64,000 bases of DNA from a virus (IMGVR_UViG_3300020472_000012:50374-114373), one strand, 5' to 3'. Numbered from the stretch's first letter, positions 4,536 to 62,075 are shown. Numbers and translations: made by a program. Notes: generated by a model not told the origin, from the letters alone.

Positions 4536-5702
4536 ATGAATTTGAATGCAAATCATTATAGGTTTTTGGATGCTTGCTCAGAGCAGTTTCCAGGCCAAGT
4601 CGAGTTTTCAAAATCGACAGTAAGGAAAGTTTGTGATACAGCAAATATTCCTTTCCCATCGTGGTTAATTAGAAAACCACAATTTAAAGCTGGATATGGA
4701 ACTTATTCAATTGAGTCCATAGTGCCAGAGAATTATGGTGCAGTTGCTGAAGTAGCAAATACACCATCTGTTGAAGTAGTTAACATTCCTTCAACTGGAG
4801 TTGGTATGAATGTACTGGACGATAATGTTTCAGTGATTCCTTCTCAGATTGAGAACTATGTTCCTTTTGGTCACTTTACTGACCTTAAGAAAATTCTTCA
4901 ATCTGGCATTTTCTTTCCAGTGTTCATAACTGGATTGAGTGGTAATGGTAAAACCTTAATGGTGGAACAGATTTGTGCCAAACTTAAAAAAGAATTATTT
5001 AGAGTTAACATCACAATTGAAACTGATGAAGATGATTTAATTGGTTCCAACACTTTAGTGAATGGAAACATCATGTTCAGAGAAGGCCCTGTCCTTAAAG
5101 CAATGAGGAAAGGTGCTGTTCTTTTGATTGATGAAGTTGACCTTGCATCAAACAAGATTATGTGTCTACAATCCATCTTGGAAGGTAAAGGATACTTAAT
5201 CAAGAAAACTGGTGAGTATGTAGAACCAGCAGATGGTTTCACAATTTGTGCCACTGCAAATACAAAAGGTAAAGGTTCTGAGGATGGAAGGTTCATAGGA
5301 ACTAACATCTTGAATGAAGCATTCCTTGAAAGGTTTGCAATTACTTTGGAACAAAGTTATCCACCAGTGAGAACTGAACAAAAAATCATCAAGAAAGATT
5401 TTGAACTTCTTGGAGTCAGTGATGATGAGTTTGCAGAGAAACTAGTTGACTGGGCTGATGTTATCAGAAAGTCCTTCTACGAAGGTGCAGTTGATGAAGT
5501 GATTTCAACTAGAAGGTTGGTTCACATTGCAAAAGCATTCTCAATGTTCACTGATAAGTTGAAGTCTATCGAGGTTTGTCTTGCAAGGTTCGATGATGAT
5601 ACAAAAGCAGCCTTCCTTGACCTCTACACTAAAGTTGATGAAGGTGTGTTAGGTCAAGAAGAAGAGATTGAGGAATCAGAGGAAAATGACATCCCAATAT
5701 AA
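4536..5702 (+). CDS. cobS: CobS-like MoxR AAA+ ATPase
   Basis: Walker A GLSGNGKT, Walker B LLIDE, ATANTKG, NEAFLERF; AGGAG RBS before ATG 4536. Confidence 0.88.
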   Translation: MNLNANHYRFLDACSEQFPGQVEFSKSTVRKVCDTANIPFPSWLIRKPQFKAGYGTYSIESIVPENYGAVAEVANTPSVEVVNIPSTGVGMNVLDDNVSVIPSQIENYVPFGHFTDLKKILQSGIFFPVFITGLSGNGKTLMVEQICAKLKKELFRVNITIETDEDDLIGSNTLVNGNIMFREGPVLKAMRKGAVLLIDEVDLASNKIMCLQSILEGKGYLIKKTGEYVEPADGFTICATANTKGKGSEDGRFIGTNILNEAFLERFAITLEQSYPPVRTEQKIIKKDFELLGVSDDEFAEKLVDWADVIRKSFYEGAVDEVISTRRLVHIAKAFSMFTDKLKSIEVCLARFDDDTKAAFLDLYTKVDEGVLGQEEEIEESEENDIPI

Positions 5703-5757
5703 AAAGAACTCTCCTAAAGGAAAGGGGCAAGGGTTAAACCTTGCCCTAATTTCCGAA

Positions 5758-5913
5758 ATGAACATAAAACAATTGATTGTATATGTTTATGGTGAAGATA
5801 AAGGATGGAAGATTACATCGAATGGTGCAACTTCCCATTATGGAGTTGAAGTATCTAAGGATAGATTACTCAACATGGCAGTAACAAAACTTAACAATCC
5901 TTACGCAGAATGA
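5758..5913 (+). CDS. Small hypothetical protein
   Basis: In-frame ATG following a GC-rich hairpin at 5725-5747. Confidence 0.4.
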   Translation: MNIKQLIVYVYGEDKGWKITSNGATSHYGVEVSKDRLLNMAVTKLNNPYAE

Positions 5914-6010
5914 AATGGATAACAAAATTGTTTTTAGACCCAGTGTGGTTATATGTATTTTTCCTTGCAACAGTTTTAGTAAAGGATATAAGGAATAACT
6001 TTTGAATACA

Positions 6011-6253
6011 ATGACAGAATTTTCAGATGTGGTACAAAACCAAATAGAACTCTTAAAAGCAGAAGAGTGGGGCAAACAAGTTAAAATGATTATTGGTGAA
6101 GGTGGATATGTAGTCTACCATTTCAATAATGGAGATAAACAGATTATAGAATCCAAGACAGGTAAATCCACTTGGGAATATGCTAGTGAAGAGAAAAAAC
6201 TAAGCATGTTGGAAAGGTTTCAGCGTTGGAGAGCAGACAACAATGATTCCTAG
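6011..6253 (+). CDS. Hypothetical protein
   Basis: ORF track; codon usage like neighbouring genes. Confidence 0.6.
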   Translation: MTEFSDVVQNQIELLKAEEWGKQVKMIIGEGGYVVYHFNNGDKQIIESKTGKSTWEYASEEKKLSMLERFQRWRADNNDS

Positions 6254-6281
6254 TTATTTAATAATAGGGGCGTTAAGCTCG

Positions 6282-6364
6282 GGCAGGGACAGGGAACTGA
6301 CCATATACAAAGAGGACACTTATAATACTAGCTCTTGTAGTATTGACGAGTTCCCATCCCGCCA
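6282..6364 (+). ncRNA. Candidate structured intergenic RNA
   Basis: GGC-A-GGGA-CA-GGGAACT pairs with AGTTCCC-A-TCCC-GCC; internal AATACTA/TAGTATT hairpin; ends in CCA. Confidence 0.4.
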
Positions 6365-6385
6365 GATTTTATTTATGAATATACC

Positions 6386-7636
6386 ATGTCTATAGAAGCA
6401 AAATTATATAAGATAACAATTGATAAACCAGAGCCACCTTTCTATTATGTAGGATGGACAGCACAAGTTGGTAAAGGTGATAGTTATCTACACTCATCGT
6501 TGAATAAACAACTTAAAGAAGATATGAGTAGGTATCCATATGACCATGAAGAAATGGAAGTTGGAACTAAAGAAGACATGGCAACACAAGAATATAGAAT
6601 ACTACATTCAGTAGATGCAATTAATAATGACGATTGGTACAACAATAATAATGGTGGTGGAAAGTATGTAAGGAAACATGGTAACTTAGATGCAATGGAT
6701 TCCTTCACTGAGAAACTAAGGAATAAAGAATTCCTACTTGGAGATAGTATCTTGCTTGCAGATGTTGAGAAGATGAGAAGATTCCAAGTTAGACATAAAG
6801 TTATAAACAGGAAACACAAATTAAAACTTCAAGATAATATCAATACCAATAAAGGTGATATGAGAAATTGGGAACCAATTATCGTTCTTGAAGATTTCGA
6901 TGGTGAAGGTGAACATCTTCTTTTTCAAGGTAATCACACAACCCAAGCTTCAATAGACTCTGGAAAAGTTCATGAACTTCCACACCAGTTAGTTCCTAAA
7001 GAAGAGTGGAGTAAACTTACTGATGATGAATTAGAGACAGTTTGTAGAAGATTAAACCCACAACACGAGAAACCAAGTTTACCAACAGATGATGATGAAG
7101 CAATTGCATGGATTGTTGATAAACATTTTGAGAAAAATATCTCACCTAGTTCAGATATTATCTACGAAGAAATGGAAAAATGGGGATATCAGAAATCCTA
7201 TGTTCAGAGAAGTCTTGTCTATCATGCAGAGAAAAAGATTAAGTCACAAAAAGGTATTCCATCTGGGCATATAATAATAGATTATACTCAAGGTTCAGAT
7301 AAAAATAGATTAGAGAAAAAACTAAGAAAAGCAAGAACCGATAATTCTGATGCATATTCTATCAGTAGTGGTTATTTTAAGTTAGATAACTTTCTTGACG
7401 ATTTCTTAGATAATGCAGACCAAAAGAAAAAAGATAGATTAGAATTGATTAAGATTTTTGTATATCATGTAGATTATGCAAAGAAAGAAGAGTGGGATAA
7501 TAAGTATTATCCAATTGTGAAAACTTGGATTGATGGACTAAATAAAATCAGTCAAGAAGAATATCGAGTTCAAGTAGAATTTGAGGTTCTACCTTTTACT
7601 CGACCAAACCCAATAAAACAGACTAAGGAGTCTTAA
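6386..7636 (+). CDS. GIY-YIG (Seg-like) N-terminal domain fused to a ParB/Srx-like domain
   Basis: LYKIT...YYVG, conserved E and WYN..GGG; downstream FQVR...PIIV...LFQGNHT. Confidence 0.5.
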   Translation: MSIEAKLYKITIDKPEPPFYYVGWTAQVGKGDSYLHSSLNKQLKEDMSRYPYDHEEMEVGTKEDMATQEYRILHSVDAINNDDWYNNNNGGGKYVRKHGNLDAMDSFTEKLRNKEFLLGDSILLADVEKMRRFQVRHKVINRKHKLKLQDNINTNKGDMRNWEPIIVLEDFDGEGEHLLFQGNHTTQASIDSGKVHELPHQLVPKEEWSKLTDDELETVCRRLNPQHEKPSLPTDDDEAIAWIVDKHFEKNISPSSDIIYEEMEKWGYQKSYVQRSLVYHAEKKIKSQKGIPSGHIIIDYTQGSDKNRLEKKLRKARTDNSDAYSISSGYFKLDNFLDDFLDNADQKKKDRLELIKIFVYHVDYAKKEEWDNKYYPIVKTWIDGLNKISQEEYRVQVEFEVLPFTRPNPIKQTKES

Positions 7637-7782
7637 ACATGGCACAACCACAATCTCAACAAGACCTATTGAAGTTTCAAGGTAAGAGAATTAAAGACCA
7701 ATCAGAATCAATTGCAGAACAAAGCAAGAAGATTGCTGAATGGATTACACAACAACAAGACCCAAGACATAACCAAGAGTGA

Positions 7783-7995
7783 ATGAATAGAAAACAACAC
7801 AAAGCACTTAAAGAAACATTCGTTACAGTCTTTACTGGATTGGTCATTAATTGGCCAATCAGTTTAGGATTGTTATACTTATGTTGGGATGTAATTGGAC
7901 TTAACACTCTTGAGACTTCTATCGTTATGACATTAGGTATGACTTTAGTTGCTCTCTTGAGGGTCTTTACTATTAGGATGTATTACGAAGAATGA
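7783..7995 (+). CDS. Small two-TM membrane protein
   Basis: Two hydrophobic segments. Confidence 0.6.
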   Translation: MNRKQHKALKETFVTVFTGLVINWPISLGLLYLCWDVIGLNTLETSIVMTLGMTLVALLRVFTIRMYYEE

Positions 7996-8318
7996 ATAAA
8001 CAATTAGAATTAGACTTCCAGTTAAGTAAACCTATTCCTAGAGGTCAAATAGACCAACAGGAATATGCAAGGGTATTGAATTCTGTAGGAGTCTTTGTGG
8101 ACTATGTTCATGGGACTTATGAAGAAGTAGAAAATTACTGTGACATCAACAATTATTGGGTAGATAGGTATCTAGACCATGTTGACCCTATGACAGTACA
8201 AAGACATTTTAAATATATTGGTTCTGGGCAGAATCCATGTTCAGTTGCTAGACCAATTTACCAGTACGATAAGGATGGTAAGTTTATTGGTTACACTGAA
8301 TTTAAAGAGAAATGGTAA
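7992..8318 (+). CDS. Hypothetical protein
   Basis: ATGA overlap with the upstream ORF. Confidence 0.65.
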   Translation: MNKQLELDFQLSKPIPRGQIDQQEYARVLNSVGVFVDYVHGTYEEVENYCDINNYWVDRYLDHVDPMTVQRHFKYIGSGQNPCSVARPIYQYDKDGKFIGYTEFKEKW

Positions 8319-8319
8319 C

Positions 8320-8347
8320 TTGACAAATCCAGAATCTATGAGATAAT
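8320..8347 (+). promoter_or_regulatory. Class II promoter (replication genes)
   Basis: TTGACA-N16-GATAAT with extended -10 TG. Confidence 0.75.
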
Positions 8348-8353
8348 AATTAT

Positions 8354-8650
8354 ATGAGTGATATAAAGTATAAATTTAACGAACCCAAACTATTGAAAGA
8401 AATAGCAGATTATGTAACTACTACCTATGAACAACATTATGGTGGTGGTAAATATCAGGCAACTGATATGATAATTGACTCTGGACATGGTGAGGGTTTT
8501 TCAGTAGGTAATATTATGAAGTATGCAATGAGATATGGTAAGAAAGGTGGTAAGAATCGTCAAGACTTGCTTAAGATTGTACATTATTCTCTTATTGCTT
8601 TATATAATCATGATGAAACATCAAGTAGTGAGGTAAAAAATGAATCTTAG
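8354..8650 (+). CDS. DUF3310-like protein (gp1.7-like nucleotide kinase family)
   Basis: HY...D.I...F..GNIMKYAMRYGKK...DLLKI.HY. Confidence 0.75.
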   Translation: MSDIKYKFNEPKLLKEIADYVTTTYEQHYGGGKYQATDMIIDSGHGEGFSVGNIMKYAMRYGKKGGKNRQDLLKIVHYSLIALYNHDETSSSEVKNES

Positions 8651-9308
8651 TGATGATACTCTTGAAGTCCTAGACAATTTTTCAGATATTAACTCTGGAA
8701 TTACTGTTAGGGTGGGGCAAGAGTTAAAAACAATTTCCCCAATGAAAAACATTTTTGGTACAGCCAAAATATCTGAGAACTTTGATAAAGAGTTTTCGAT
8801 ATATGACTTATCAGAATTTCTTGCAACTTTATCGTTGTTCGATGCACCAACTTATGAGTTTGGTGAGAAAGAAGTTGTAGTTAGTGAAGGTGGTAATAAA
8901 GCAAGGTATGTGTATGCAGACCCTTCAATGATTATTACTCCAGAGAAAGATATAACAATGCCTAATCCAGAGATTGTATTTGAATTAGATAGTAATACTC
9001 TAAGTAAAGTACAAAAGGCTGCAAATGTTCTATCGTTGCCAGACTTAGTTTTGGAATCAGATGGTACAATTGTTCTTCTTGCAGTAAGAGATAGGAAACT
9101 AACTGACTCAAGTAATGAGTTTGGTGAGAAGATTGCAGATGGTGATGGTAGTGTCTATTCAATGAACTTCAAGATAGAGAACTTGAAAGTATTGGATGAT
9201 GATTATACAGTGTATGTATCATCAAAAGGTATTTCACACTTTGTTTCAAAGAATAAAGGTGTAGAATATTTCATTGCATTAGAACCAGATTCAAAATATG
9301 GGGCATAA
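8640..9308 (+). CDS. 45: DNA polymerase sliding clamp gp45
   Basis: MNLSDDTLEVLDNFSDINSGI, FSIYDLSEFL, YFIALE; T4 synteny. Confidence 0.93.
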   Translation: MNLSDDTLEVLDNFSDINSGITVRVGQELKTISPMKNIFGTAKISENFDKEFSIYDLSEFLATLSLFDAPTYEFGEKEVVVSEGGNKARYVYADPSMIITPEKDITMPNPEIVFELDSNTLSKVQKAANVLSLPDLVLESDGTIVLLAVRDRKLTDSSNEFGEKIADGDGSVYSMNFKIENLKVLDDDYTVYVSSKGISHFVSKNKGVEYFIALEPDSKYGA

Positions 9309-9312
9309 CTCA

Positions 9313-9320
9313 TATAAATA
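9313..9320 (+). promoter_or_regulatory. T4-type late promoter
   Basis: Intergenic TATAAATA. Confidence 0.55.
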
Positions 9321-9436
9321 ATGAATGTAGATACTAAGACATTGGTATTAAGGGCTGCAAGACCAACTCTCTCATCTAGGGGTTTTGTTCAGTTTGATAA
9401 GGTGGGTTATCAGACTTCTTTAATTCGAGATATATT

Positions 9437-10369
9437 ATGACAGAAGAATTTTTATGGGTAGAGAAGTATCGTCCAAAAACTATTGAGGATTGTGTACTTC
9501 CATCACAAATCAAACAAACCTTTTTTGACTTAAAAGGTGAAATTCCAAATATGATTCTTAGTGGTTCTGCTGGAACTGGTAAGACTACTGTTGCACGAGC
9601 ATTGTGTGAACAAGTTGGTGCAGATTGGATTATCATTAATGGTTCAGAAGAGAGTGGTATTGATGTTCTTAGAACAAAGATTAAAAACTTTGCTTCTACT
9701 GTGTCGTTGGGTGGTGGAAACAAAGTTGTTATTCTCGATGAAGCAGATTATCTAAATCCACAATCAACCCAACCAGCATTGAGAGGATTCATCGAAGAGT
9801 TCCATAAGAACTGTAGATTTATCCTAACATGCAACTTCAAGAACAGAATAATACAACCTTTGCATTCAAGATGCACTGTAATAGACTTTAGAATACCAGC
9901 TAATGAAAGACCAAGACTCGCATCTGTATTCATGGCAAGATTAATGACAATCTTAACTGAGGAAGGTGTGAAGTGGAATACAGAAGTATTACAAGAACTG
10001 GTAATGAAATACTTTCCAGACTTTAGAAGAACTATAAATGAACTACAGAGATATGGAACTAGTGGTGAGATTGATGTAGGTATCTTAACTAATGTCCAAG
10101 AAGAAAGTTTAAAAGAACTAATGTCTCATCTTAAAACCAAAAGGTTTACTGATATGAGACGATGGGTTGCAATGAATGTTGATAACGACCCAGTAATGCT
10201 ATATAGAAAGTTGTATGATAGTTTATATGAAACTGTCGATAAATCAACAATCCCACAAGCAGTTTTAATTATTGCAGATTATAGTTATAAGTCTGCATTT
10301 GTAGCCGACCAAGAAATTAACTTGGTTGCATGTTTAACCGAACTAATGATGGAGTGTAAATTTTCATGA
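9437..10369 (+). CDS. 44: Clamp loader large subunit gp44
   Basis: LWVEKYRP, GSAGTGKT, ILDEAD, SRC motif. Confidence 0.96.
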   Translation: MTEEFLWVEKYRPKTIEDCVLPSQIKQTFFDLKGEIPNMILSGSAGTGKTTVARALCEQVGADWIIINGSEESGIDVLRTKIKNFASTVSLGGGNKVVILDEADYLNPQSTQPALRGFIEEFHKNCRFILTCNFKNRIIQPLHSRCTVIDFRIPANERPRLASVFMARLMTILTEEGVKWNTEVLQELVMKYFPDFRRTINELQRYGTSGEIDVGILTNVQEESLKELMSHLKTKRFTDMRRWVAMNVDNDPVMLYRKLYDSLYETVDKSTIPQAVLIIADYSYKSAFVADQEINLVACLTELMMECKFS

Positions 10370-10534
10370 AACAATTTAAAGAATGGATAAACAGGGACAA
10401 CAACAAATTTACTTTTGTTGGTGCCTTCTGTCTATTGGGTATGACAGTTACATGGGGTGATGGTATGGCTGAGTTTGCAACATTTTCAGCAATATTTGTT
10501 TTTTGTGTAATTAGAAAAGTGCTAAATATATAAT

Positions 10535-10729
10535 ATGGAATACGAACTAGTACATTATATACTTTTAGGTCTCCTTGTTGGACTCGCATATTGGCATGGT
10601 CATAAGACTGGAGTCAATGCTGGTGCAGAAGGAATGTATGAACATTTATATAATAGTGGGACAAGAAAAGAAGATAAGGTTATTGTTGCATTAGAATATG
10701 AAGATAGACATTATAAAAAGGATTTTTAA
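10535..10729 (+). CDS. Small membrane hypothetical protein
   Basis: N-terminal TM segment. Confidence 0.55.
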   Translation: MEYELVHYILLGLLVGLAYWHGHKTGVNAGAEGMYEHLYNSGTRKEDKVIVALEYEDRHYKKDF

Positions 10730-11493
10730 TGGAACAACCAACACTATCAAAAGATTTATTTAGAATCAAACTCAATGTTGGGTTAGACTATAGATTTATT
10801 GCTGATTGGTGTATAGAACATGAACATCATCCATACTTCTCACATGATGAAGATGGGGTTGCAACACCAAATCAATTTAGTGATAATCTAAGGTCATATG
10901 TTAGAGGTTCCAAAGAAGGTATAGATTTTGGTGAAGATGGTGTAGCAGATTTAGAAGAGAAGACTAAAGACATAGAATATTATCATACCTATAATCCATT
11001 TTCATTTGGATTAAGACCATTTGCAGATTTATACTGGAAGTTAAATGAGTTCTTCTATTCAGACCCACAAGTTAACGAGGCTGGTGAACCATATTACATT
11101 CATGGATGGTTTAATGTATATACAAAGAAAGATGAAGACAATAAAGGGTATGACCACATCCCTTGGCACAAACATATGGAAGTTTATCATCCACATATCT
11201 ATCATGGATTTTATTGTGCAAATGTACAACCTTCTCAAACTTGGTACAGAGAGGGCCCAGAATCTACAGAGGAATCGTGGTTAAAACATACAGACTATGA
11301 TGATATGATAATATATTCACCATCATCATTTGAACATGCATCAACGCCATGGCTTGAAGACAAACCTAGAGTGACGATTGCATTTGACATTATTCCAGAG
11401 AGTGTTTATCTCTCAGAACATAATATTGGTAACTATCAATGGGGATTAGAACCAAGACAATATCAATCAATACCATTTCCTAAATGCATATGA
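10729..11493 (+). CDS. 2OG-Fe(II) oxygenase-like protein
   Basis: WFNVY, HxH (WHKH), PSSFEH, RVTIAFDI. Confidence 0.7.
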   Translation: MEQPTLSKDLFRIKLNVGLDYRFIADWCIEHEHHPYFSHDEDGVATPNQFSDNLRSYVRGSKEGIDFGEDGVADLEEKTKDIEYYHTYNPFSFGLRPFADLYWKLNEFFYSDPQVNEAGEPYYIHGWFNVYTKKDEDNKGYDHIPWHKHMEVYHPHIYHGFYCANVQPSQTWYREGPESTEESWLKHTDYDDMIIYSPSSFEHASTPWLEDKPRVTIAFDIIPESVYLSEHNIGNYQWGLEPRQYQSIPFPKCI

Positions 11494-12755
11494 ACTATTT
11501 TCAATACACATTAAATGATTTAGAACACAATTCTGCAAAGAAAGAATTCAATTACATTACCTTCTTTGCTGGTGGTGGTGGAAGTTCTTGTGCATATAAA
11601 CTTGCTGGTGGTGATGTAAGATACATGAATGAGTTTCAACAGATTCATGTAGATACTTACCTTGCAAACTTTCCTAATACAGTTCATGAATGTAAAGATA
11701 TAAAACAAGTCACTGGTAAAGATATTTTAGAAATGACAGGATTACAAAAAGGTGAACTTGATATTATGGATGGTTCTCCACCATGTCCACCATTCTCTAT
11801 GGCTGGAAAGAAAAGAGAAGGTTGGGGTAAAGAGAAAGTTGCATATGGAATGAAACAACAGAACATAGAAGACCTTACTTGGGAAATGATTAGAATCGCA
11901 GAGGAAGTCATGCCCAAAGTTATAGTATGTGAAAATGTGAAAGGTCTTTCTATGGACTATGCAAGAGACCATCTTATTAAGATGATAACAGATTTTGAAA
12001 AACTTGGGTATTCAGTTACATGGAAAATCATGAAGGGTCATGAACATGGAGTACCACAAAAAAGAGAAAGAGTATTCTTAGTTGGTGTTCGTGATGATGT
12101 ATTAGATGCAATAGGAATGCCATTTATGTGTTTAAGTGGATTGTTTCCAGAGACAACTCCAGAAAGAATATCGATTGGAGAAGCAATTGATGACTTAATA
12201 GATGATGAAGAGAATAAGAAGGATGCAGAATATCTAGTTAATTCAATGAATAATTCATCAAAGTCACATTGGATTAATGGATTTGAGACACATCCAGACC
12301 CAGACTATGCACACTGTGGCCCATGTAAAGGGTTAGATGGTGTTGCAGATATGATGGGAAATCGTCCTTACATATCAATAGGTGATGATATTGTTGGGCC
12401 TTGGTTTGAAGAACAAATAGAAAATGGACACTTAAAAGAAGAGGATGCAAAACATTCTTATTATATGTCAAGAATTGTTCCAAAACATCTTCCAGCACAT
12501 TCACTAACTGAACAAGGATGTCAAGAAAAATTTATGGGTGGTAATCACTTCCACTATAGTGGTAAGAGGATATACACACCAAAAGAAATGGTCAGACTTA
12601 TGACATTACCAAATGATTATAAGATGACTGGGGACTATAACGATAAAGGTGCAAGAATAGGTTTAATGGTTGCACCACTATGTTTGTACTACTTAGTAGA
12701 ACAAATAAAGGAACAGGTATTAAAGCCATGGAATTCACTGCACCAAAAGACTTAG
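11484..12755 (+). CDS. dcm: DNA cytosine-C5 methyltransferase
   Basis: Motif I FAGGGG, IV GSPPC, VI ENV, VIII QKRERVF, IX/X RLMTLP...IGL.V. Confidence 0.93.
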   Translation: MHMNYFQYTLNDLEHNSAKKEFNYITFFAGGGGSSCAYKLAGGDVRYMNEFQQIHVDTYLANFPNTVHECKDIKQVTGKDILEMTGLQKGELDIMDGSPPCPPFSMAGKKREGWGKEKVAYGMKQQNIEDLTWEMIRIAEEVMPKVIVCENVKGLSMDYARDHLIKMITDFEKLGYSVTWKIMKGHEHGVPQKRERVFLVGVRDDVLDAIGMPFMCLSGLFPETTPERISIGEAIDDLIDDEENKKDAEYLVNSMNNSSKSHWINGFETHPDPDYAHCGPCKGLDGVADMMGNRPYISIGDDIVGPWFEEQIENGHLKEEDAKHSYYMSRIVPKHLPAHSLTEQGCQEKFMGGNHFHYSGKRIYTPKEMVRLMTLPNDYKMTGDYNDKGARIGLMVAPLCLYYLVEQIKEQVLKPWNSLHQKT

Positions 12756-52459: not shown

Positions 52460-52463
52460 AATG

Positions 52464-53107: not shown

Positions 53108-53119
53108 TAGGAAATAATT

Positions 53120-53566: not shown

Positions 53567-53623
53567 AGCTTTTCTCTTCTGACCTATATACTACTATTAT
53601 GTTAATGATAGTAGGATTTTATT

Positions 53624-53992
53624 ATGAAGTTATTTGAGAAATTAACAGACGAGAACTTTACAATGTTTGCAATGCAGTGTTACGACAATCCGCAATGCAC
53701 ATCTGTTGAAGAGTTCATGGAAGACCTAAGAAGATTTCGTTATCTAAAACGACTTCTAAGGAGATACTATAAGAACGATGAACTCAGAGAGAGATTACTC
53801 CTTAATCACCTTATCTGTCTTCTCAATATTTTTGGGGTTCCTAATTGTATTAAAATGTTGGACTTCAAAATTGAAGAAGAATACTGGCCAGTTTTAAAAA
53901 CAATGTTGATATACATGGGTCATGTTGAGGAAGATTGGAGACCAAAAATACCCATAGACATGAATGTAGCAAATATACTAAGGGAACTATAA
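53624..53992 (+). CDS. Conserved T4-like hypothetical protein
   Basis: FA...YDNPQC...EF.EDL.RF.YLKRL...ERL.LNH. Confidence 0.8.
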   Translation: MKLFEKLTDENFTMFAMQCYDNPQCTSVEEFMEDLRRFRYLKRLLRRYYKNDELRERLLLNHLICLLNIFGVPNCIKMLDFKIEEEYWPVLKTMLIYMGHVEEDWRPKIPIDMNVANILREL

Positions 53993-54582
53993 TGGAGCAA
54001 GTAAAGTTACACGAAGCAAGTGCAATGGGTGTTATCGACACAGTAATCGTGTTTCGTCTATTAAAACTATTTTCCACTAAGTGGGAAGAGATGGAAGCAT
54101 TCAAACAAGGTCTGATTGATGAAAAAGGTAAAAGAATTAAATCAGTCAAACCTAAAACCAAAGAACAAAAAGCATCATATACCCTACTCCATAGATTAGT
54201 ATTCAATCTAAAAAGAATCCTAGAACTAATTCCATTCGGTAAGACCAGACTTGCCAATTATGCAGCTGCCCTTGCATTACTCAAAGAGAACTTTGGACTA
54301 GATTCTAAATATCTAGAAGAAAAGTTCTATCAATACCTTAAAGAACAGGGCAAAGTATCAGACTTGTTAGAAGGTTATGATTCGACTCAGAATACCCTCT
54401 CAGAGGGCCGTATTTACTCTCTAAGGACATCTTTATGGAATGATGATGACAATATAGGTTATCGTGATGATGAAATACAAATAATTGGGTTGACAGATAA
54501 TGTAATGGGTGTTAATATTTATAAAGGATATAACAAAACTCAAGATAAAGTTCAGTTTTTAACAGGACATGATGTAAAATGA
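53992..54582 (+). CDS. Conserved T4-like hypothetical (structural) protein
   Basis: FRLLKL...W...AF..GLID.KG...YT.LHRLVFNLKR. Confidence 0.75.
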   Translation: MEQVKLHEASAMGVIDTVIVFRLLKLFSTKWEEMEAFKQGLIDEKGKRIKSVKPKTKEQKASYTLLHRLVFNLKRILELIPFGKTRLANYAAALALLKENFGLDSKYLEEKFYQYLKEQGKVSDLLEGYDSTQNTLSEGRIYSLRTSLWNDDDNIGYRDDEIQIIGLTDNVMGVNIYKGYNKTQDKVQFLTGHDVK

Positions 54583-55475
54583 AAGGTAAAAGTAATCCAG
54601 TAGCAAAATTTATGAATGTGTACAATCGTGCATCTACTCATTCTACGCCTAAAGATTATGATAGAAAGGAGAATGGATGGTTTAAAGACTGGTTAGAAGA
54701 AGATGCACCAGCAAATGCAACTGGAGTTGCAGTATCTACAGATAAACCTATAGTTAAAAAGAAGAAAAAGAAAGAAAAGAAATATCTAAAGGGTAATAAA
54801 TGGTCTTTAGATGCTGGAAATAATGAAGTAGGTACTCCAGATATAGTTAAAAGATTTAAAGATGGTACACCTATGCAAGAGTCTATAGAAGAGGCAATTA
54901 ATAAAGCAAAGGTAAAAAAACAACTTCAAAAGATTAAAGGAATTACCAACAAACAAATAGAAATTATTTTAACATTACCACCAGCTGTACTTACTCAAAT
55001 GATTACTCAAGTTAGTCAATTAGTGAGTGGTGATGAAATATACGAAAGAGATTACAAGAAAGAAAGAGAGAATTATCTGGGGACACCAGAACAGAAGAAA
55101 CGAAACGCTGCAAGGAAGAGAGCAAGAAGAGCATTAGAGAAAGAAGGTAGAGTAAAACCTTTTGATGGTAAAGATGTACATCATAAAGACAATAACCCAG
55201 AGAACAACGATAGAAGTAATCTAAGAGTTGCAAATAGAAGTACCAACAGAAGGGAACCTAGACTTAGAGAAGGTCTCGATGAAGGTAAGTTGGTTGCAGA
55301 TATCAATGCAATTTTCGATGCAATTGTTAAATCAGTAAAGAAAAGGATGGGTAAAGAATACCAGACTAACCAAGAAAGAGGACTTAGATTTGTTAATCAA
55401 GTTGCATCTTTAGTTGGTGGTAAAGTAACAGATAAGAAACAACAGAAAGGTAAGTTATTTTATAAAACAAAATGA
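54579..55475 (+). CDS. Composite protein with an HNH-like domain
   Basis: EEDAPANATG; RDYKKE...RNAAR...DGKDVHHKDNNP.NN...NL....S.NR. Confidence 0.65.
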   Translation: MKGKSNPVAKFMNVYNRASTHSTPKDYDRKENGWFKDWLEEDAPANATGVAVSTDKPIVKKKKKKEKKYLKGNKWSLDAGNNEVGTPDIVKRFKDGTPMQESIEEAINKAKVKKQLQKIKGITNKQIEIILTLPPAVLTQMITQVSQLVSGDEIYERDYKKERENYLGTPEQKKRNAARKRARRALEKEGRVKPFDGKDVHHKDNNPENNDRSNLRVANRSTNRREPRLREGLDEGKLVADINAIFDAIVKSVKKRMGKEYQTNQERGLRFVNQVASLVGGKVTDKKQQKGKLFYKTK

Positions 55476-55738
55476 AGAAGTTTTTCATAAAAGTTAAAGA
55501 GTTTTTCCACAAATTATGGTTGTGGATGGTCAGTTGGTTTGAATGTCATAAACAACTAACTGTAAGTTATAATAAATATAACCAAGAGGGTGAGATAATA
55601 GATACTCTCACTAGAACATGGGAAGTCAGAAAGATTTACAATCTAGGCCCAAAATTCATTGCATTCAAAACATTTGAAGGTAATAAGGTCGAACTTAGAA
55701 CTGCAACTCCTATGGACTATATGACAGAGGAATTATAA
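55472..55738 (+). CDS. Hypothetical protein
   Basis: ORF track, ATGA overlap. Confidence 0.65.
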   Translation: MKKFFIKVKEFFHKLWLWMVSWFECHKQLTVSYNKYNQEGEIIDTLTRTWEVRKIYNLGPKFIAFKTFEGNKVELRTATPMDYMTEEL

Positions 55739-55739
55739 C

Positions 55740-56135
55740 ATGCAACAAATTTTAATGGGGATAATTTTAGTCTTAGGACTAGGTGGTTTCTTTTTATATA
55801 ACCAGAATATAACCCTTAAGAACGAGAACACTGCATTAAACTTTGCAGTTGAAGAGCAAAAACAAACAATCTCTGCAATCAAAGAGTCTTATGAGACTCA
55901 AGGTAAAGCCTTGAATCAGTTGACATCTAAGAATGCAGAAATTGAAGCAGAAATGAATAGATATATGGATATCTTTCGTAGACATAATTTAAACCAGCTT
56001 GCAGTTGCCAAGCCTGGTCTTATTGAGAAAAGAGTAAACAATGGAACTAAACAAGTATTTGACTCCATCGAAAACGACTCAAAAGAGTTGGATTCGTTGG
56101 ACGACATTACCACTGATATTAATCCTAACAACTAG
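55740..56135 (+). CDS. Putative i-spanin (Rz-like)
   Basis: N-terminal TM and coiled coil, KPGLIEKRVN; overlaps a lipoprotein gene. Confidence 0.65.
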   Translation: MQQILMGIILVLGLGGFFLYNQNITLKNENTALNFAVEEQKQTISAIKESYETQGKALNQLTSKNAEIEAEMNRYMDIFRRHNLNQLAVAKPGLIEKRVNNGTKQVFDSIENDSKELDSLDDITTDINPNN

Positions 56136-56583
56136 TTGTTCGATTTTTCAACCTAAACAGGTTGAGGTGGTATCAAAACCTATAGAAATAGAAATCATTC
56201 AACCAACTATGCCCAGAAACATAGAATTGAATGAACCACATTGGTATGTGGTATCAGAAGCAGTAATATCCAATCCATGTATAAAAGATGTGGAAACTGG
56301 TAAAAGAGAAAAGAACGAGGATGGTTCTTGTAAAAATGGGAAAGAAAACCCAGACTGGCCAGAAGGATATACTTATCTAGACCAATTCATTGATGAAATG
56401 AAGAAAATGAACTCTGGTGATGTAGTATTTGTTGCAATGACAGTTGCAGATTACGAACTAATGGCAATGAACATGCAAGAATTACGAAGATACATCAGAG
56501 AAGTACAAGAAGTGGTAGTTTACTACAGAAATGTTACTATCAAAGACCAACCAGCCGTTGGTGCAGAAATAATTAAAAAATAG
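56041..56583 (+). CDS. Putative o-spanin lipoprotein (Rz1-like)
   Basis: Lipobox LTTSC, Pro-rich stretch, overlap with the i-spanin gene. Confidence 0.6.
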   Translation: MELNKYLTPSKTTQKSWIRWTTLPLILILTTSCSIFQPKQVEVVSKPIEIEIIQPTMPRNIELNEPHWYVVSEAVISNPCIKDVETGKREKNEDGSCKNGKENPDWPEGYTYLDQFIDEMKKMNSGDVVFVAMTVADYELMAMNMQELRRYIREVQEVVVYYRNVTIKDQPAVGAEIIKK

Positions 56584-56636
56584 AACCAAAATCCAATGTC
56601 TTAGTCGTTATGTCTTGAGAGAGGACATAAATCTAC

Positions 56637-56664
56637 TTGACAAATCCACGATTTATGAGATAAT
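56637..56664 (+). promoter_or_regulatory. Class II promoter of primase
   Basis: TTGACA-N16-GATAAT with TG extension. Confidence 0.75.
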
Positions 56665-56670
56665 AATATT

Positions 56671-57654
56671 ATGTCTTTGTGGATTGATAAAAAGTATCTT
56701 AAACTAGTTGCACCTAGATTTAAGAATTCAAAATGGAAGAGTGATAAACTCTTAAATCATTCGTGTCCCTATTGTGGGGATTCTCAAAAGGATAAACTTA
56801 AAGCACGAGGTTATCATTTCGTGTATAAGGATTCCTATGTCTATAAATGCCATAATTGTGGTAAATCTACCAGTATAGGTAAATTCCTAGAAGAACACTC
56901 AAACACCTTATATAAACAATGGGTGATGGAGAAATTTGGTAGAAGAGAGAAGAGAAAAACACCATTACCAGAAATGTCTTTTAAACCAGAGTTTAAATCA
57001 GACCCTTTAAAGGGGTATACTAAGGCAGAAGATAATGAAATTTCTCTCACTTATATGATGAGAAGAAGTATTCCAAAAAAACATTGGAATAATATCTATT
57101 TTGTTGAGAATTCACAGAGTCTAAGTTCTTTGAATTATAAGTATAATAGGAGAGTTTTAGGGAATGACCCAAGACTTGTTTTCCCATTCAAAGATAGACA
57201 AGGTAACCTTGTAGGGGTAACAGGTAGAGCATTAAATGATTCACAACTAAGATACCTAACACTAAGATTTGACGATGACAAACCATTCATATTTGGACTT
57301 AACAAAGTCGATTTCAACAAACCTCTTTATGTTGTTGAAGGGCCCATTGACTCTCTATTTCTGGACAATTGCATTGCAGTTGCGGGTTCAGACTTTTCCA
57401 AGATAACAAACGAGATTCCAAAGACGAATACTACTATTGTATTTGATAACGAACCTCGAAACAAAGAAATCATCAAGAAGATGAATTCTATTGCAGAACT
57501 TGGATATAAAGTTTGCATCTGGCCAGAAACGATTAAAGAAAAGGATATAAACGACATGGTATTAAGTGGGGTAAATCCACTTGATATAATTAAGAGGAAC
57601 ACATTGCAAGGACTAAAATTGAAACTTGCAATCAAGAATTGGAGTAAGGTCTAA
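56671..57654 (+). CDS. 61: DNA primase gp61
   Basis: CPYCGDS...CHNCG zinc finger, VEGPIDSLF, DNEPRN, KDINDM. Confidence 0.96.
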   Translation: MSLWIDKKYLKLVAPRFKNSKWKSDKLLNHSCPYCGDSQKDKLKARGYHFVYKDSYVYKCHNCGKSTSIGKFLEEHSNTLYKQWVMEKFGRREKRKTPLPEMSFKPEFKSDPLKGYTKAEDNEISLTYMMRRSIPKKHWNNIYFVENSQSLSSLNYKYNRRVLGNDPRLVFPFKDRQGNLVGVTGRALNDSQLRYLTLRFDDDKPFIFGLNKVDFNKPLYVVEGPIDSLFLDNCIAVAGSDFSKITNEIPKTNTTIVFDNEPRNKEIIKKMNSIAELGYKVCIWPETIKEKDINDMVLSGVNPLDIIKRNTLQGLKLKLAIKNWSKV

Positions 57655-59952
57655 ATGACAACGAATGGAATAAGTATCACCAAGAGGAATGGAAATAAAG
57701 AACCACTAAAGATAGAGAAAATCCACAAGATGGTAGATGCAGCTGCAAAAGGTATTAATGGAGTATCTGCATCACAAGTGGAAATGAGTGCAAACTTATC
57801 ATTCTATGATGGAATCACAACAGAAGAAATTCAACAAACCCTAATTAAGTCTGCTTCAGATTTGATTAGTCTAGACACACCAAACTATCAGTATGTTGCA
57901 TCAAGGTTATTGTTATTTGCAATAAGAAAGGATGTATTTAATACCAAATGGAAAGATAGTAGAATATACCCAGCACTTAAAGATATAGTTGCAAGGAATA
58001 TAGAGATTGGTGTTTATGACACTAAGTTGATAGATTATTATACTGAGAAAGAGTGGGATACTCTTAACAGTTATATGAACCACAAAAGAGATTTTCTATT
58101 CTCTTATGCTGGGTTAAGACAAGTAGTAGACAAGTATCTTGTTCAAGATAGGTCTACTGGAAAATTATTTGAAAGTCCACAATACATGTATATGTTAATC
58201 AGTGCAGTATTGTTTAAGGACTATCCTAGTGAGACTAGGTTAAACTATGTAAAGAGGTATTATGATGCAATTTCGCAATTTAAAATCAACATTCCAACGC
58301 CTATCATGGCAGGTATACGAACGCCCATTAGACAGTTTGCGAGCTGTGTTCTCGTGGATTCTGACGACACTCTACCAAGCATTTTTTCTAGTGACATGGC
58401 TATTGGTAGGTATGTTGCTCAGAGGGCTGGAATTGGTATCAACGCTGGTAGAATTCGTGGGATTAACAGTAAGATTAGGGGTGGAGAAGTACAACACACA
58501 GGTGTTATCCCTTTTCTCAAGAAATTCGAGAGCACAGTCCGCTGTTGCACTCAGAATGGAGTTAGGGGTGGGAGTGCTACTGTCCACTTCCCAATCTGGC
58601 ATCAAGAAATTGAGGACATCATTGTTCTCAAAAATAACAAAGGGACAGAAGACAACAGGGTAAGAAAATTAGATTACTCTATCCAAATTAGTGAACTGTT
58701 CTATAAACGATTCTTAAATGATGAAGAGATATCTTTATTCTCACCACATGATGTAGAAGGATTGTATGATGCATTCGGTACTCCAGAGTTTGATGAACTC
58801 TATGAGAAGTATGAAAGAGCATACTCTATTCCTAAGAGAAAGATATCTGCAAGAACTCTGTTCATGGATATTCTAAAAGAAAGAGCAGAGACAGGTCGAA
58901 TATACATTATGAATATAGACCATTCCAATACACATAGTTCATTTACAGACAAGGTTAACATGAGTAACTTATGTCAAGAGATTACATTACCTACAGACCC
59001 AATTCAACATCCAGATGGTGAAGGTGAGATTGCACTTTGTATTCTATCTGCAATCAATGTAGGAACTCTTAAATTAGAAGATATGGAAGAACTTTGTGAC
59101 CTTGCAGTTAGAGGATTAGAAGAACTAATTGAATATCAAAACTATCCAGTTAAAGCTGCTGAGATATCTACACTTGCAAGAAGAAGTTTAGGTATAGGAT
59201 ACATTGGTCTTGCACATTATCTTGCAAAGAATAAGGTAATGTATAATGACCCAGAAGCACATAAATTAGTTCATGAACTAACAGAGAGTTTCCAATACCA
59301 CTTATTAAAATCATCAAATAAACTTGCAGAAGAGAAGGGTGCATGTGAGTATTTTGGTCGAACTAAATATTCATTAGGAGAACTTCCTATAGACCATTAT
59401 AAGAAAGAAGTGGATGAAATATATCCAAACGAATTATTGATGGATTGGGAAGGACTGAGAAAGTCTATAAAGGAACATGGGTTAAGACATTCAACTTTGT
59501 CTGCACAGATGCCCTCAGAGTCCTCTAGTGTCGTTTCTAACGAGACAAATGGGATAGAACCACCTAGAGACTACCTTTCAGTCAAGAAGAGTAAAAAAGG
59601 GCCATTAAAACAGATAGTACCTTCTTACCAAAGATTACAAAACTTTTATACTCTATTATGGGATATGAAAGATAACGATGGATACATCAAAGTAGTTGCA
59701 GTTATGCAGAAGTTTTTTGACCAATCCATTAGTGGTAACTGGAGTTATAATCCAGAGAACTATGAAAATAATGAAGTACCCATTTCTGTAATGGCAACTG
59801 ATATGTTGAATACATATAAGTATGGGTGGAAAACATCTTACTATCAGAACACATATGACAGTAAGACAGAAGATATAATTGAGGTTCCATCAGAACCACT
59901 TCCATTAGGGGAAGATATAGATGATGAGGATTGTGAGGCATGTACAATTTAG
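57655..59952 (+). CDS. nrdA: Ribonucleotide reductase class Ia alpha subunit
   Basis: ATP cone, PTPIMAG, SCVL, SNLCQEI, C-terminal CEAC. Confidence 0.98.
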   Translation: MTTNGISITKRNGNKEPLKIEKIHKMVDAAAKGINGVSASQVEMSANLSFYDGITTEEIQQTLIKSASDLISLDTPNYQYVASRLLLFAIRKDVFNTKWKDSRIYPALKDIVARNIEIGVYDTKLIDYYTEKEWDTLNSYMNHKRDFLFSYAGLRQVVDKYLVQDRSTGKLFESPQYMYMLISAVLFKDYPSETRLNYVKRYYDAISQFKINIPTPIMAGIRTPIRQFASCVLVDSDDTLPSIFSSDMAIGRYVAQRAGIGINAGRIRGINSKIRGGEVQHTGVIPFLKKFESTVRCCTQNGVRGGSATVHFPIWHQEIEDIIVLKNNKGTEDNRVRKLDYSIQISELFYKRFLNDEEISLFSPHDVEGLYDAFGTPEFDELYEKYERAYSIPKRKISARTLFMDILKERAETGRIYIMNIDHSNTHSSFTDKVNMSNLCQEITLPTDPIQHPDGEGEIALCILSAINVGTLKLEDMEELCDLAVRGLEELIEYQNYPVKAAEISTLARRSLGIGYIGLAHYLAKNKVMYNDPEAHKLVHELTESFQYHLLKSSNKLAEEKGACEYFGRTKYSLGELPIDHYKKEVDEIYPNELLMDWEGLRKSIKEHGLRHSTLSAQMPSESSSVVSNETNGIEPPRDYLSVKKSKKGPLKQIVPSYQRLQNFYTLLWDMKDNDGYIKVVAVMQKFFDQSISGNWSYNPENYENNEVPISVMATDMLNTYKYGWKTSYYQNTYDSKTEDIIEVPSEPLPLGEDIDDEDCEACTI

Positions 59953-60974
59953 ATTTTTCTTATAAGAGTCTAGAACAAAGACAAGAAGAAAAAAGAAAAG
60001 AAGAATTCAAAGAAGAAAAGATTATTCAAGATTTGAAGTTTGATGAGATTGACTCTAAACGAGCATTAGAGATATTCAATCCATTAAACAACTTAAATAA
60101 TCCAGATGTTCCAGAGATAACCTATGAAGGTTATCTTATGGGAAACCATAGAATTTTTATTGCAAGAAACTTTATAGATAAATCTGATATAGAATACTGT
60201 AAGCATATGTTCAAGTTTATGGAACATAGAAAACAGTATTATAGAGAAGAGAATATCATACAAGAGAATTATGATGATAAGGGTGCATTCTTAGATAACT
60301 GGGTTAGTAAAGGATTTCCATTTGCACCATTTTCTGAGTCCCTCTTATTGATGTATCATGAAAGAATTGAAAAACTATTTGGTCTCAGATTAGTTCCAAC
60401 CTATTCATATGGTCGAACATATGAACGACACAGTAGATTACTCTCTCATTCTGATAGACCATCATGTGAATTCAGTGCAACACTTCCAATATCATTCGAT
60501 ACAGATGATGGAAAGCCTTGGGTAATTTGGGCAAGGGGTGACCACAACTTTACTGGATTGACTGGTAGAACTGCATGGGATTTATCAATGGGTAAACCAT
60601 TTTATGCAAGACATGAAAAAGCAGTACCAGTTGCATTATGGCCTGGTGATGTTTTATTCTATCAAGGTAGTAATGTTATACATTGGAGAGAAAGGTTAGT
60701 AGGAAATTCTGCAAGACAAGTCTTCTTACATTATCTACATGTTGATGGCCCAATGTATAGAGACTTTCCAAAACTAAAGTATGATTCAAGACCATCGATA
60801 TATCATGGTACTGGTTCATTACATGCAGAAGCAAGACATGATGCAAGTAGGTTTTTACAGGATATAGACAACTATAAGTATTATGCAAATGTATCGATAA
60901 CAGACCCAGCAACTGGAAAGGCATGTGGTAAAGGATTTGAAAAATTTAAAGAAGGAACTGACAGTACATTTTAA
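59940..60974 (+). CDS. 2OG-Fe(II) oxygenase-like protein
   Basis: PTYSYGR.Y, HSDRPSCE.S, PGD.LFY.G...HWRE, QVFLHY. Confidence 0.8.
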   Translation: MYNLDFSYKSLEQRQEEKRKEEFKEEKIIQDLKFDEIDSKRALEIFNPLNNLNNPDVPEITYEGYLMGNHRIFIARNFIDKSDIEYCKHMFKFMEHRKQYYREENIIQENYDDKGAFLDNWVSKGFPFAPFSESLLLMYHERIEKLFGLRLVPTYSYGRTYERHSRLLSHSDRPSCEFSATLPISFDTDDGKPWVIWARGDHNFTGLTGRTAWDLSMGKPFYARHEKAVPVALWPGDVLFYQGSNVIHWRERLVGNSARQVFLHYLHVDGPMYRDFPKLKYDSRPSIYHGTGSLHAEARHDASRFLQDIDNYKYYANVSITDPATGKACGKGFEKFKEGTDSTF

Positions 60975-60977
60975 GAA

Positions 60978-62075
60978 ATGAGTATATTTAACAAAAACAA
61001 AGTCAACTTTCTAAAGAACAAAATGTTCTTCGGAGAGGAACTTAATACCCAACGATATGATGATTTTAAATATCCCATATTCGACAAGCTCACACAAAGA
61101 CAATTGGGTTACTTCTGGAGACCAGAAGAAGTTTCTCTCCAGAAGGACAGAAATGATTACAACGAATTAAGTAAAGCACACAAACACATCTTTACCAGTA
61201 ATCTAAAGTATCAAACATTATTAGACTCAGTACAAGGAAGAGGGCCTGCACTTGCACTACTTCCATTCTGTACTATTCCAGAATTAGAATCATGTATCAT
61301 TGCATGGGACTTCATGGAATCAATCCATAGTAGGTCATACACCTACATGATGAAGAACATCTACTCAGACCCAACAAAAGAATTTGACACCATTATTGAT
61401 AATGAACATATCATTGCAAGAGCAGAATCAGTAACAGAGACTTATGATGACTTTATTGATTATGCAAATAGATGGAAGTTGGGATACAAAACTGACGAGA
61501 AAGAACTTTACAGAAAACTATATCTTGCACTTATAAGTATCAACATACTTGAAGGTTTAAGATTCTTTGTGTCATTTGCATGTACTTTTGGTTTCGGAGA
61601 GTTGAAACTTATGGAAGGTTCTGCAAAGATTATCAGTCTGATTGCAAGAGACGAGAATCTCCATCTGGGGATAACTCAACACATTCTTAAAGCATTCCAA
61701 AACACTGAGAAGAATGCAATTATGTTGAAAGTTATGAAGGAAAGTGAGAAAGATGTATATAAAATGTATGAAGATGCAGCCCAACAAGAGAAAGATTGGG
61801 CAGAATACCTATTCATGTATGGTAGTATGATAGGACTATCAACTGAATTGTTGGGTCAGTATGTTGAGTATACAACAAATAAAAGACTCAGAGCAATAGG
61901 ATTAAATCCTATATATGATATATCCAGTAGGACAAATCCACTGCCTTGGACTCAACATTGGTTATCCTCTAAAGGTCAACAGAATGCACCTCAAGAGACT
62001 GAGATTGAGTCATATGTAATTGGTGGAATCAAACAAGATATAGAAGACGATACATTCAAAGGATTCAAACTATAA
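60978..62075 (+). CDS. nrdB: Ribonucleotide reductase class Ia beta subunit
   Basis: FWRPEE, DSVQGR, E.IHSRSY, LEGLRF, RDE.LH, APQETE. Confidence 0.98.
   Translation: MSIFNKNKVNFLKNKMFFGEELNTQRYDDFKYPIFDKLTQRQLGYFWRPEEVSLQKDRNDYNELSKAHKHIFTSNLKYQTLLDSVQGRGPALALLPFCTIPELESCIIAWDFMESIHSRSYTYMMKNIYSDPTKEFDTIIDNEHIIARAESVTETYDDFIDYANRWKLGYKTDEKELYRKLYLALISINILEGLRFFVSFACTFGFGELKLMEGSAKIISLIARDENLHLGITQHILKAFQNTEKNAIMLKVMKESEKDVYKMYEDAAQQEKDWAEYLFMYGSMIGLSTELLGQYVEYTTNKRLRAIGLNPIYDISSRTNPLPWTQHWLSSKGQQNAPQETEIESYVIGGIKQDIEDDTFKGFKL

Follow-up and report, generated by a model that had tools for sequence, protein, structure and literature searches.

In phage T4 every cytosine is replaced before replication by way of a deoxycytidylate (dCMP) hydroxymethylase, and the DNA carries sugar-bearing 5-hydroxymethylcytosine (5hmC). 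Other phages avoid restriction sites, as does Staphylococcus phage K, which has no GATC, and chloroviruses encode both M.CviPI, a methylase of all GpC sites, and restriction-type enzymes of their own that destroy host or competitor DNA. A gene trio from marine viromes, consisting of a C5-methyltransferase (C5-MT), an overlapping TET and a glycosyltransferase of the TET-associated (TAGT) type, was described by Burke et al. 2021 (PMC8256090), and both the pathway and the preference of its enzymes for GpC are already on record. Clade I enzymes in that study modify GpC[C/T/G] and not GpCA (measured for C5-MT43/88 and TET43/88), carry an insert in the target-recognition region and have heat-shock protein (HSP) and redoxin genes as neighbours along with a kinase or a glycosyltransferase, while GpC[C/T] was measured for clade II hydroxymethylated sites and clade II has a polymerase gene upstream. 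Glycan tailoring in C5-MT/TET pathways has also been reported (bioRxiv 10.1101/2023.12.21.572611), in work that thought a GpC-limited mark unlikely to protect a genome broadly, proposed other functions, and observed restriction nucleases near such pathways. In the papers on this cluster the enzymes were studied in E. coli, and their biological role was left open. A phage enzyme also acting at GC is SpCmoX of Synechococcus phage S-B43 (8YF3; PMC12783734), a C5-carboxymethyltransferase whose GC specificity comes from nanopore sequencing and oligonucleotide assays. Here we analyse IMGVR_UViG_3300020472_000012:50374-114373, a stretch of 64,000 nucleotides (the window) that forms bases 50374-114373 of a 114,373-bp IMG/VR virus contig (CheckV completeness 63%). 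It carries the same trio of genes, and its genome shows the complement of the mark. We propose, with a probability of roughly 0.8, that this phage marks its own DNA at G-C-(C/G/T), that nuclease sites unable to take the mark have been purged, and that unavoidable ones have been re-coded.

A first-pass annotation, made from the window's sequence, had suggested that sites for GGNCC, CCNGG, CCNNGG and GATC enzymes were lost unless a GpC overlapped them, and exact counts confirm what it had seen by eye. GATC, GGWCC, CCSGG, ACGT and GCGC each occur zero times (degenerate positions are in IUPAC code throughout), and there is no CCNGG without a GC flank. All 31 GGNCC sites are GGSCC, all 12 CCWGG are preceded by G or followed by C, the three CCGG are all gCCGG, and each of the 13 CCWWGG gains a GpC from a G or C beside it. 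Gly-Pro pairs, estimated at about 25 and said never to use GGA or GGT, number exactly 25 in frame (16 GGC-CCN, 9 GGG-CCN, no GGT or GGA) in a window where GGT and GGA together supply 85% of Gly codons. Asp codons preceding C are GAC in 138 of 138 cases, and Lys-Pro-Gly and Glu-Pro-Gly do use AAG and GAG as stated. The upstream 50 kb of the contig obeys the same flank rule. The footprint and two example sites, none of them assigned to a strand, are as follows.

1..64000: word footprint; GATC, ACGT, GGWCC and CCSGG absent, and CCWGG, CCGG and CCWWGG present only with a flank that makes a GpC
4589..4595: example shielded site, tCCAGGc, with Pro-Gly written CCA-GGC so that the rare GGC codon makes a GpC on the bottom strand
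12998..13003: example shielded site, gCCGGc, one of the window's three CCGG

To set these counts against expectation, open reading frames (ORFs) were called across the whole contig and two nulls were built, a synonymous-codon shuffle that preserves proteins and codon usage, and a stricter shuffle that also preserves all dinucleotide counts. All 4- to 6-mers were scanned, with shielded copies of a word (those touching a GpC) split from unshielded ones. Against these nulls the deficits and the shielding hold, and are stronger than first claimed. GATC occurs once on the contig where 328 copies are expected under the codon null and 128 under the dinucleotide null; in the same order, ACGT has 0 against 181 and 102, GGWCC 0 against 55 and 60, HCCWGGD 0 against 41 and 44, HCCGGD 0 against 40 and 16, and HCCWWGGD 0 against 35 and 38. 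The shielded forms are found instead: GGSCC 49 times against 12 and 16 expected, GCCWGG 19 against 9 and CCWGGC 23 against 5. No shuffle approached the observed values, and all 41 Gly-Pro pairs of the contig are GGC-CCN or GGG-CCN.

Splitting words by shielding gives the rule its generality (observed/expected from here on). CCWGG stands at 0/44 unshielded and 35/14 shielded; with a shielded fraction of 0.24 in the null, finding 35 of 35 copies shielded has, by our own arithmetic, a probability of about 1e-22. The corresponding unshielded and shielded values are 0/15 and 7/8 for CCGG, 0/81 and 15/10 for CCGT/ACGG, 1/21 and 26/11 for CCCG, 2/95 and 7/6 for CCTGA, and 0/63 and 5/6 for CCTCC. For CTGAAG they are 1/56 and 6/26, and because the shield in this word is GCT, the rule concerns GpC and not GCC alone. 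Among survivors the shielded share is 15/15 for CCGT, 5/5 for CCTCC, 7/9 for CCTGA and 6/7 for CTGAAG, and in the surviving asymmetric words the G sits directly before the leading C. AGTACT (0/29), TTCGAA (0/18) and GGTACC (0/13) are missing as well. The purged words that go beyond the first-pass annotation are thus ACGT, CCGT/ACGG, CCCG, CCTGA, CCTCC, CTGAAG, CCTGCA, AGTACT, TTCGAA, GGTACC and GTGCAC. Overall, about fifteen nuclease target words have been erased from the genome unless shielded, and at least eight unrelated cores, some palindromic and some asymmetric, follow the rule of purging unless a GpC overlaps, whichever the strand.

Two further features of the word counts deserve mention. 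CpG stands at 0.32 of expectation, its remaining copies being nearly all ACGA/TCGT and TCGA, and the degenerate palindrome MCGK takes in ACGT, ACGG/CCGT and CCGG, each of its four members being purged unless shielded. The sole GATC of the contig and one of its two unshielded CCTGA lie 160 bp apart at contig positions 38154 and 38313, outside the window, and both fall within the stretch of the major capsid gene gp23 (contig 38103-39410; L143) that encodes the variable N-terminus; these exceptions may reflect recent recombination or an assembly chimera.

The contig has 35% G+C, carries almost every gene on one strand and belongs to an uncultured marine T4-like phage, with gp45, gp44, gp62, RegA and further T4 replisome genes arranged in T4 order. 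Its closest named phages are Methylophilales phage Melnitz and Pelagibacter phages Mosig and HTVC008M (gp44 identity 56-62%). A megablast of the modification cassette against named phages gave no match, and relatives came from protein searches. Seven genomes bear the methylase/TET pair, namely the present contig, five large contigs assembled for comparison (G001-G005) and cultured Melnitz, and Mosig and HTVC008M, which have neither gene, served as negatives; the three cultured phages and G001-G005 were run against the same nulls. The word statistics follow the pair. Pooled over the seven genomes, GGWCC is 0/447, unshielded CCWGG 0/376 (shielded 337/111) and unshielded CCGG 0/182, against 148/157, 193/186 and 36/69 in the two negatives. 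Rescue on the 5' side is by G only, with ACCWGGD at 0/275, CCCWGGD at 0/105 and TCCWGGD at 0/223 in the seven genomes, and GCCWGGD at 272/104. Codon choice is just as sharply divided. In the seven genomes 292 of 292 Gly-Pro pairs are GGS-CCN, and the two negatives write 116 of their 116 as GGW-CCN. A shield covers 329 of 329 Pro-Gly sites in the former and 46 of 220 in the latter, and the Pro-Gly dipeptide itself occurs at 0.39-0.61 of expectation versus 1.1.

Wider sampling extends the link. Eleven methylase-positive loci found via gp44 (179 kb) contain no GGWCC and no unshielded CCWGG, and 45 loci in which the gp44-gp62 site is empty (388 kb) contain 101 and 213; in these empty-site loci gp44 and gp62 are 21 to about 1000 bp apart, and there is neither cassette nor footprint. 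A methylase homologue is encoded by 80 IMG/VR loci, in nearly all of which GGWCC, unflanked CCWGG and unflanked CCGG are at zero and the flanked forms are present. GATC, ACGT, CCWWGG, CCGT, CCTGA, CCTCC and CTGAAG, by comparison, vary among close relatives, some of which have purged them and some of which have them often. Words thus lie far below codon-preserving expectation and differ between related phages, which is the pattern of restriction-site avoidance; changing nuclease repertoires would be expected to give such a mosaic, and mutation bias would not. Lineage-specific purges also touch GTAC, at 0/177 in G004 (L132-L138) and 0/139 in G005 (L101-L104, L139) and normal in other genomes, and GTWAC, with no copy in G004 and L176.

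What all seven footprint genomes have and neither negative has comes down to three genes, those for the methylase, the TET and a tail-fibre-like protein, and this gene set is more in keeping with a host group in common than with a nuclease that travels along. The third gene encodes a 438-amino-acid protein (L142, contig 14459-15775, outside the window) that has no Pfam match and that lies, in a protein atlas, near tail-fibre-like viral proteins and not near nucleases. The negatives have word losses of their own. Mosig (MT647606) and HTVC008M (KC465899; both in L105-L118), whose host is HTCC1062, follow the opposite codon rule, with GGSCC purged (0/17 and 1/5), ACGT is 0/180 in Mosig, TCGA 2/71 in HTVC008M, and AGTACT is missing in both, so SAR11 phages are likewise under pressure from site-specific nucleases.

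Which GpC sites protect can be read from the core CCTGC/GCAGG, a natural experiment in that its last C is a GpC cytosine followed by a variable base. Pooled over the seven genomes, HCCTGCA is 21/418, HCCTGCC 79/100, HCCTGCG 68/76 and HCCTGCT 334/315. GCCTGCA, which has a second GpC, is enriched (77/31), and HCCTGCA in the negatives is at 135/125. GTGCAC, whose sole GpC is in the GCA context on both strands, is 0/93, and CCCG survivors are mainly CCCGc, with the bottom-strand cytosine in GCG. Since HCCTGCA and GTGCAC are purged and the other contexts kept, GCC, GCT and GCG protect and GCA does not. We therefore reject a model of the M.CviPI type in which every GpC is modified, and the suggestion that any overlapping GpC acts as a shield stands for the many cores above and fails for GCA. 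Melnitz alone also purges HCCTGCG (2/15). The third-base rule read from the footprint, GC[C/G/T] here and GC[C/T] in Melnitz, thus appears to match the specificities published for two clades. In the more remote methylase loci (L066-L081) CCTGC is not purged, so they contribute nothing to the GCG test.

GCA is also the favoured alanine codon of these genomes, with a share of 67-76% in the six IMG/VR pair genomes, 61% in Melnitz and 47-54% in the two negatives, and TGCA is enriched 1.2-1.45-fold in those six. Markable GC[C/G/T] cytosines make up about 5% of all cytosines in pair genomes versus 9-10% in the negatives. The GCA preference may minimise the number of sites to be modified, or it may be a codon bias of the lineage.

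The cassette itself sits between gp44 and gp62 of the T4-like replisome operon, a position that sets it apart from the Burke cluster.

9437..10369, plus strand: gp44 clamp loader (PF21328, PF00004), the left border of the insertion site
10729..11493, plus strand: weak 2-oxoglutarate (2OG)-Fe(II) oxygenase-like ORF upstream of the methylase (phrog_81, 7e-4)
11484..12755, plus strand: C5-cytosine DNA methyltransferase, the putative GpC writer (PF00145, 5e-49; TIGR00675, 2.5e-44)
12680..13729, plus strand: TET/JBP-type Fe(II)/2OG dioxygenase (PF12851, 5e-13, 48.9 bits against a cut-off of 34.9)
13891..14685, plus strand: TAGT (PF20691, 5e-8, 33.6 bits against a cut-off of 27.5; phrog_842, 2e-36)
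14869..15246, plus strand: gp62 clamp-loader subunit (PF16790, 9e-14), the right border of the insertion site

These matches bear out the earlier assignment of 11484-14685 to a C5-MT/TET/glycosyltransferase system. PF00145 is matched end to end by the methylase, whose catalytic motif is SPPC and whose GSPPC falls, when aligned, on the catalytic loop of 8YF3 and M.HhaI. The alignment also gives it a 22-residue insert in the target-recognition region in comparison with the enzymes of Melnitz, L069 and S-B43. As listed, the TET ORF shares 76 nt with that of the methylase, and the TET's HxD (H246, D248), distal His and 2OG-binding Arg are kept in the aligned G004 and Melnitz orthologues. The ORF at 10729..11493 is common only to G001, G002 and G006 and stands outside the conserved methylase/TET pair; we considered it as a nuclease and rejected this, as it is not recognisable as one and its match is the weak one to 2OG-oxygenases.

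Likeness to SpCmoX is considerable. Its structure, 8YF3, is the nearest solved one to the methylase (E 3e-70, over residues 7-244 and 352-414), both are phage enzymes with a shared SPPC, SpCmoX acts at GC, and S-B43 shields CCGG by the same rule, with unshielded CCGG at 0/88 and all 8 surviving CCGG overlapping a GpC. Another cyanophage with a homologue of the methylase, S-CRM01, purges no word capable of being shielded and so tells nothing about the rule. The two enzymes differ in that their target-recognition regions fail to align, and although SPPC is present, the residue aligned to R350 of CmoX, the Arg to which the carboxymethyl group binds, is Leu (IGLMV versus VGRMV). In CmoX systems a neighbouring CmoA supplies Cx-SAM. 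With Leu at that position, a TET and a TAGT as neighbours and no CmoA or CmoY, we reject the methylase as a CmoX, and the Leu together with the TET neighbour and the lack of CmoA/CmoY leads us to expect a methyl and not a carboxymethyl group. The motif in question is motif X, near residue 394, which reads I-G-L-M-V in the G004, Melnitz and L069 homologues too; it has G-L where canonical C5-methylases have G-N and CmoX has G-R.

Among relatives the pair occupies three genomic positions: here it is in the gp44-gp62 gap, G004 has it after HSP20 and redoxin, and Melnitz has it after DNA polymerase. In G003-G005 it lies about 10 kb away from gp44/gp62. The footprint accompanies the pair across all three positions despite differing tailoring genes. 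TAGT is the variable tailoring step, seen only in the present contig and G002 (35% identity), and in its place G004 and Melnitz have an unknown protein and a P-loop kinase. The G004 orthologue of the methylase is 79% identical and its layout is that of clade I, HSP-redoxin-MT-TET-kinase, with the HSP20 and redoxin genes that the present contig does not have upstream of the pair, and Melnitz shows polymerase-MT-TET-kinase, as in clade II. The Melnitz genome (MZ577097) has 68 CCWGG, 60 GGSCC and 15 CCGG sites. In it the methylase lies at 4010-5227 and is annotated as HhaI-type, the adjoining TET is annotated as hypothetical, and the Melnitz paper mentions only a 'type II DNA methylase'. The literature that we searched held no conditional avoidance, no dipeptide re-coding, no third-base read-out and no such pathway in Melnitz.

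How might such a footprint arise? In the scheme we favour, the methyltransferase (11484-12755) would write 5-methylcytosine (5mC) after replication at GC[C/G/T], the TET dioxygenase (12680-13729) would oxidise 5mC to 5hmC, and TAGT (13891-14685) would attach a sugar to the 5hmC. Nucleases with a marked cytosine inside their recognition site would be blocked; a mark on a single strand is apparently enough, as most surviving palindromic sites have the G at just one end. Selection by site-specific nucleases would then have removed all copies unable to hold a marked cytosine, namely GATC, ACGT and GGWCC, and CCWGG, CCGG, CCWWGG, CCGT, CCCG, CCTGA, CCTCC, CTGAAG and CCTGCA where unflanked. No synonymous change can rid Gly-Pro of GGNCC or Pro-Gly of CCNGG, since each dipeptide always spells that word, and this is the problem the mark would solve: Gly-Pro would have been re-coded to GGC/GGG-CCN and Pro-Gly to xxG-CCN-GGN or CCN-GGC, with Pro-Gly dipeptides also roughly halved at the protein level. 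We infer the chemistry of the mark, its presence on virion DNA and the identity of the nucleases. The latter, we think, are mainly host restriction enzymes, and it is possible that they are partly phage-encoded, so that the earlier naming of GATC, GGNCC, CCNGG and CCNNGG enzymes as the selecting agents holds for the purging and is less certain as to whose enzymes they are. That the genome records the specificity of its own C5-MT/TET system, as had been suggested, is supported by the rule tracking the pair among relatives.

Like T4, this T4-like phage would shield its DNA by sugar-bearing 5hmC, but the contig has no dCMP hydroxymethylase gene, and about 5% of cytosines would be marked after replication, the phage having edited its own sequence to compensate. 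With classical avoidance it shares the complete loss of short target words, and with M.CviPI a virus methylase acting on a dinucleotide; it differs from the former in that loss depends on the flanking base and from the latter in that GCA is seemingly unprotected. To our knowledge, avoidance conditional on a flanking base has not been described before.

Several observations weigh against this scheme. The case is built from sequence statistics and homology, and the compared genomes are interrelated, so the association does not amount to seven independent events. Shielded CTGAAG is itself partly depleted (6/26). Clade I placement comes from the insert and gene order and not from a tree with Burke's sequences, and the target-recognition region aligns with none of the compared enzymes of measured specificity. 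Two related fragments, G006 (IMGVR_UViG_3300020470_000021, 48 kb, 26% complete) and G007 (32 kb, 18% complete), have the full footprint but no C5-methylase, TET or thymidylate-synthase-type gene; no gp44 found is closer in identity than that of G006 (95%), and the gp44-gp62 gap of both fragments holds glycosyltransferases, a DruA-like gene and a cytidylyltransferase. The three quarters of these genomes that were not sampled may hold the writer, or another writer may exist. These fragments support the view that the GpC mark is made by an enzyme outside the window's cassette, which would then be incidental or serve regulation or packaging, and the published argument that a GpC-limited mark would hardly protect broadly points the same way. 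We consider this unlikely: the third-base rule matches the clade in which insert and gene order place the methylase, and switches to GC[C/T] in Melnitz along with a clade II layout, the methylase and TET are the sole non-structural genes common to all seven footprint genomes, and a thymidylate-synthase-type hydroxymethylase (PF00303) was looked for in five genomes and not found. A pattern with no modification behind it, whether because the nucleases need a non-G base on the 5' side and so have longer sites, or because codon or dinucleotide bias creates it, could draw on the strong CpG deficit (0.32) and the skewed codon usage. It is very hard to credit when composition-preserving nulls still expect 40-130 copies where 0-2 are seen, one flank rule covers at least eight unrelated cores on either strand, relatives of similar composition do not have the pattern, and S-B43, with its measured GC mark, follows the rule at CCGG too.

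A rival that we take more seriously, though we still think it the poorer bet, accepts the shielding mark and differs on the nucleases: many purged words would reflect the phage's own solitary restriction-type nucleases directed at host or competitor DNA, whose sites the phage itself must avoid, and the sparse mark would serve to tell self from non-self. In the gp44-gp62 gap of G006 (L166:12046-12813) there is a gene for a Tsp45I-family type II restriction enzyme (PF06300, 1.7e-66) with no methylase seen, and GTSAC is 0/38 over the 48 kb of G006, a loss unique among the genomes examined (34/36.5 in G007, and 0.65-2.4 per kb in all other relatives). Judging from the gene and word counts, G006 seems to have a solitary restriction enzyme of its own and to avoid that enzyme's sites, and together the gene and the GTSAC loss indicate that phage-encoded nucleases can drive purging in this lineage. 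Purging of GATC, ACGT, CCWWGG, CCGT, GTAC and TTCGAA varies strongly among close relatives, as it would for mobile nuclease genes, restriction nucleases have been seen near such pathways (bioRxiv 10.1101/2023.12.21.572611), and a staphylococcal-nuclease homologue at 31694-32110 (PF00565, 5e-9) occurs in G002-G005 and Melnitz and not in Mosig or HTVC008M. On the other hand, a Pfam search of the 36 accessory ORFs of the 63% complete contig recognised no restriction-enzyme family, no candidate nuclease travels with the universally purged set of CCWGG, CCGG, GGWCC and CCTGCA, and the cassette-negative pelagiphages purge ACGT, AGTACT, TCGA and GGSCC, which fits host restriction in the ecosystem. 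Restriction enzymes often escape Pfam. As to the nuclease-like genes of the window, the product of 31694-32110 is a candidate non-specific host-DNA nuclease, and an HNH_3 ORF at 54579-55475 (PF13392, 9e-8), common to G001 and G003-G005, probably encodes a homing endonuclease.

If the phage does mark its DNA at GC[C/G/T] as we propose, the natural role of these enzymes, an open question until now, would receive a sequence-based answer: the mark is a shield, and the gap in the shield is covered by purging or re-coding all other sites, down to a halving of Pro-Gly. We take the footprint as an indication that the mark is present on phage DNA in nature, with its third-base specificity resolved as GC[C/G/T] here and GC[C/T] in Melnitz. 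The read-out is computational and cheap and can be applied to thousands of virome contigs, and one phage with the footprint, Melnitz, is already in culture on its host, OM43 strain H5P1. More speculatively, and at somewhat longer odds than the involvement of phage nucleases in the purging, the GC[C/G/T] mark could be one half of a two-part self/non-self system in which solitary restriction enzymes of the lineage shred host or competitor DNA. Were that true, marking some 5% of cytosines would achieve what T4 gets by replacing every C, and an unknown modification specificity, down to its third base, would be readable from marine virome sequence alone.

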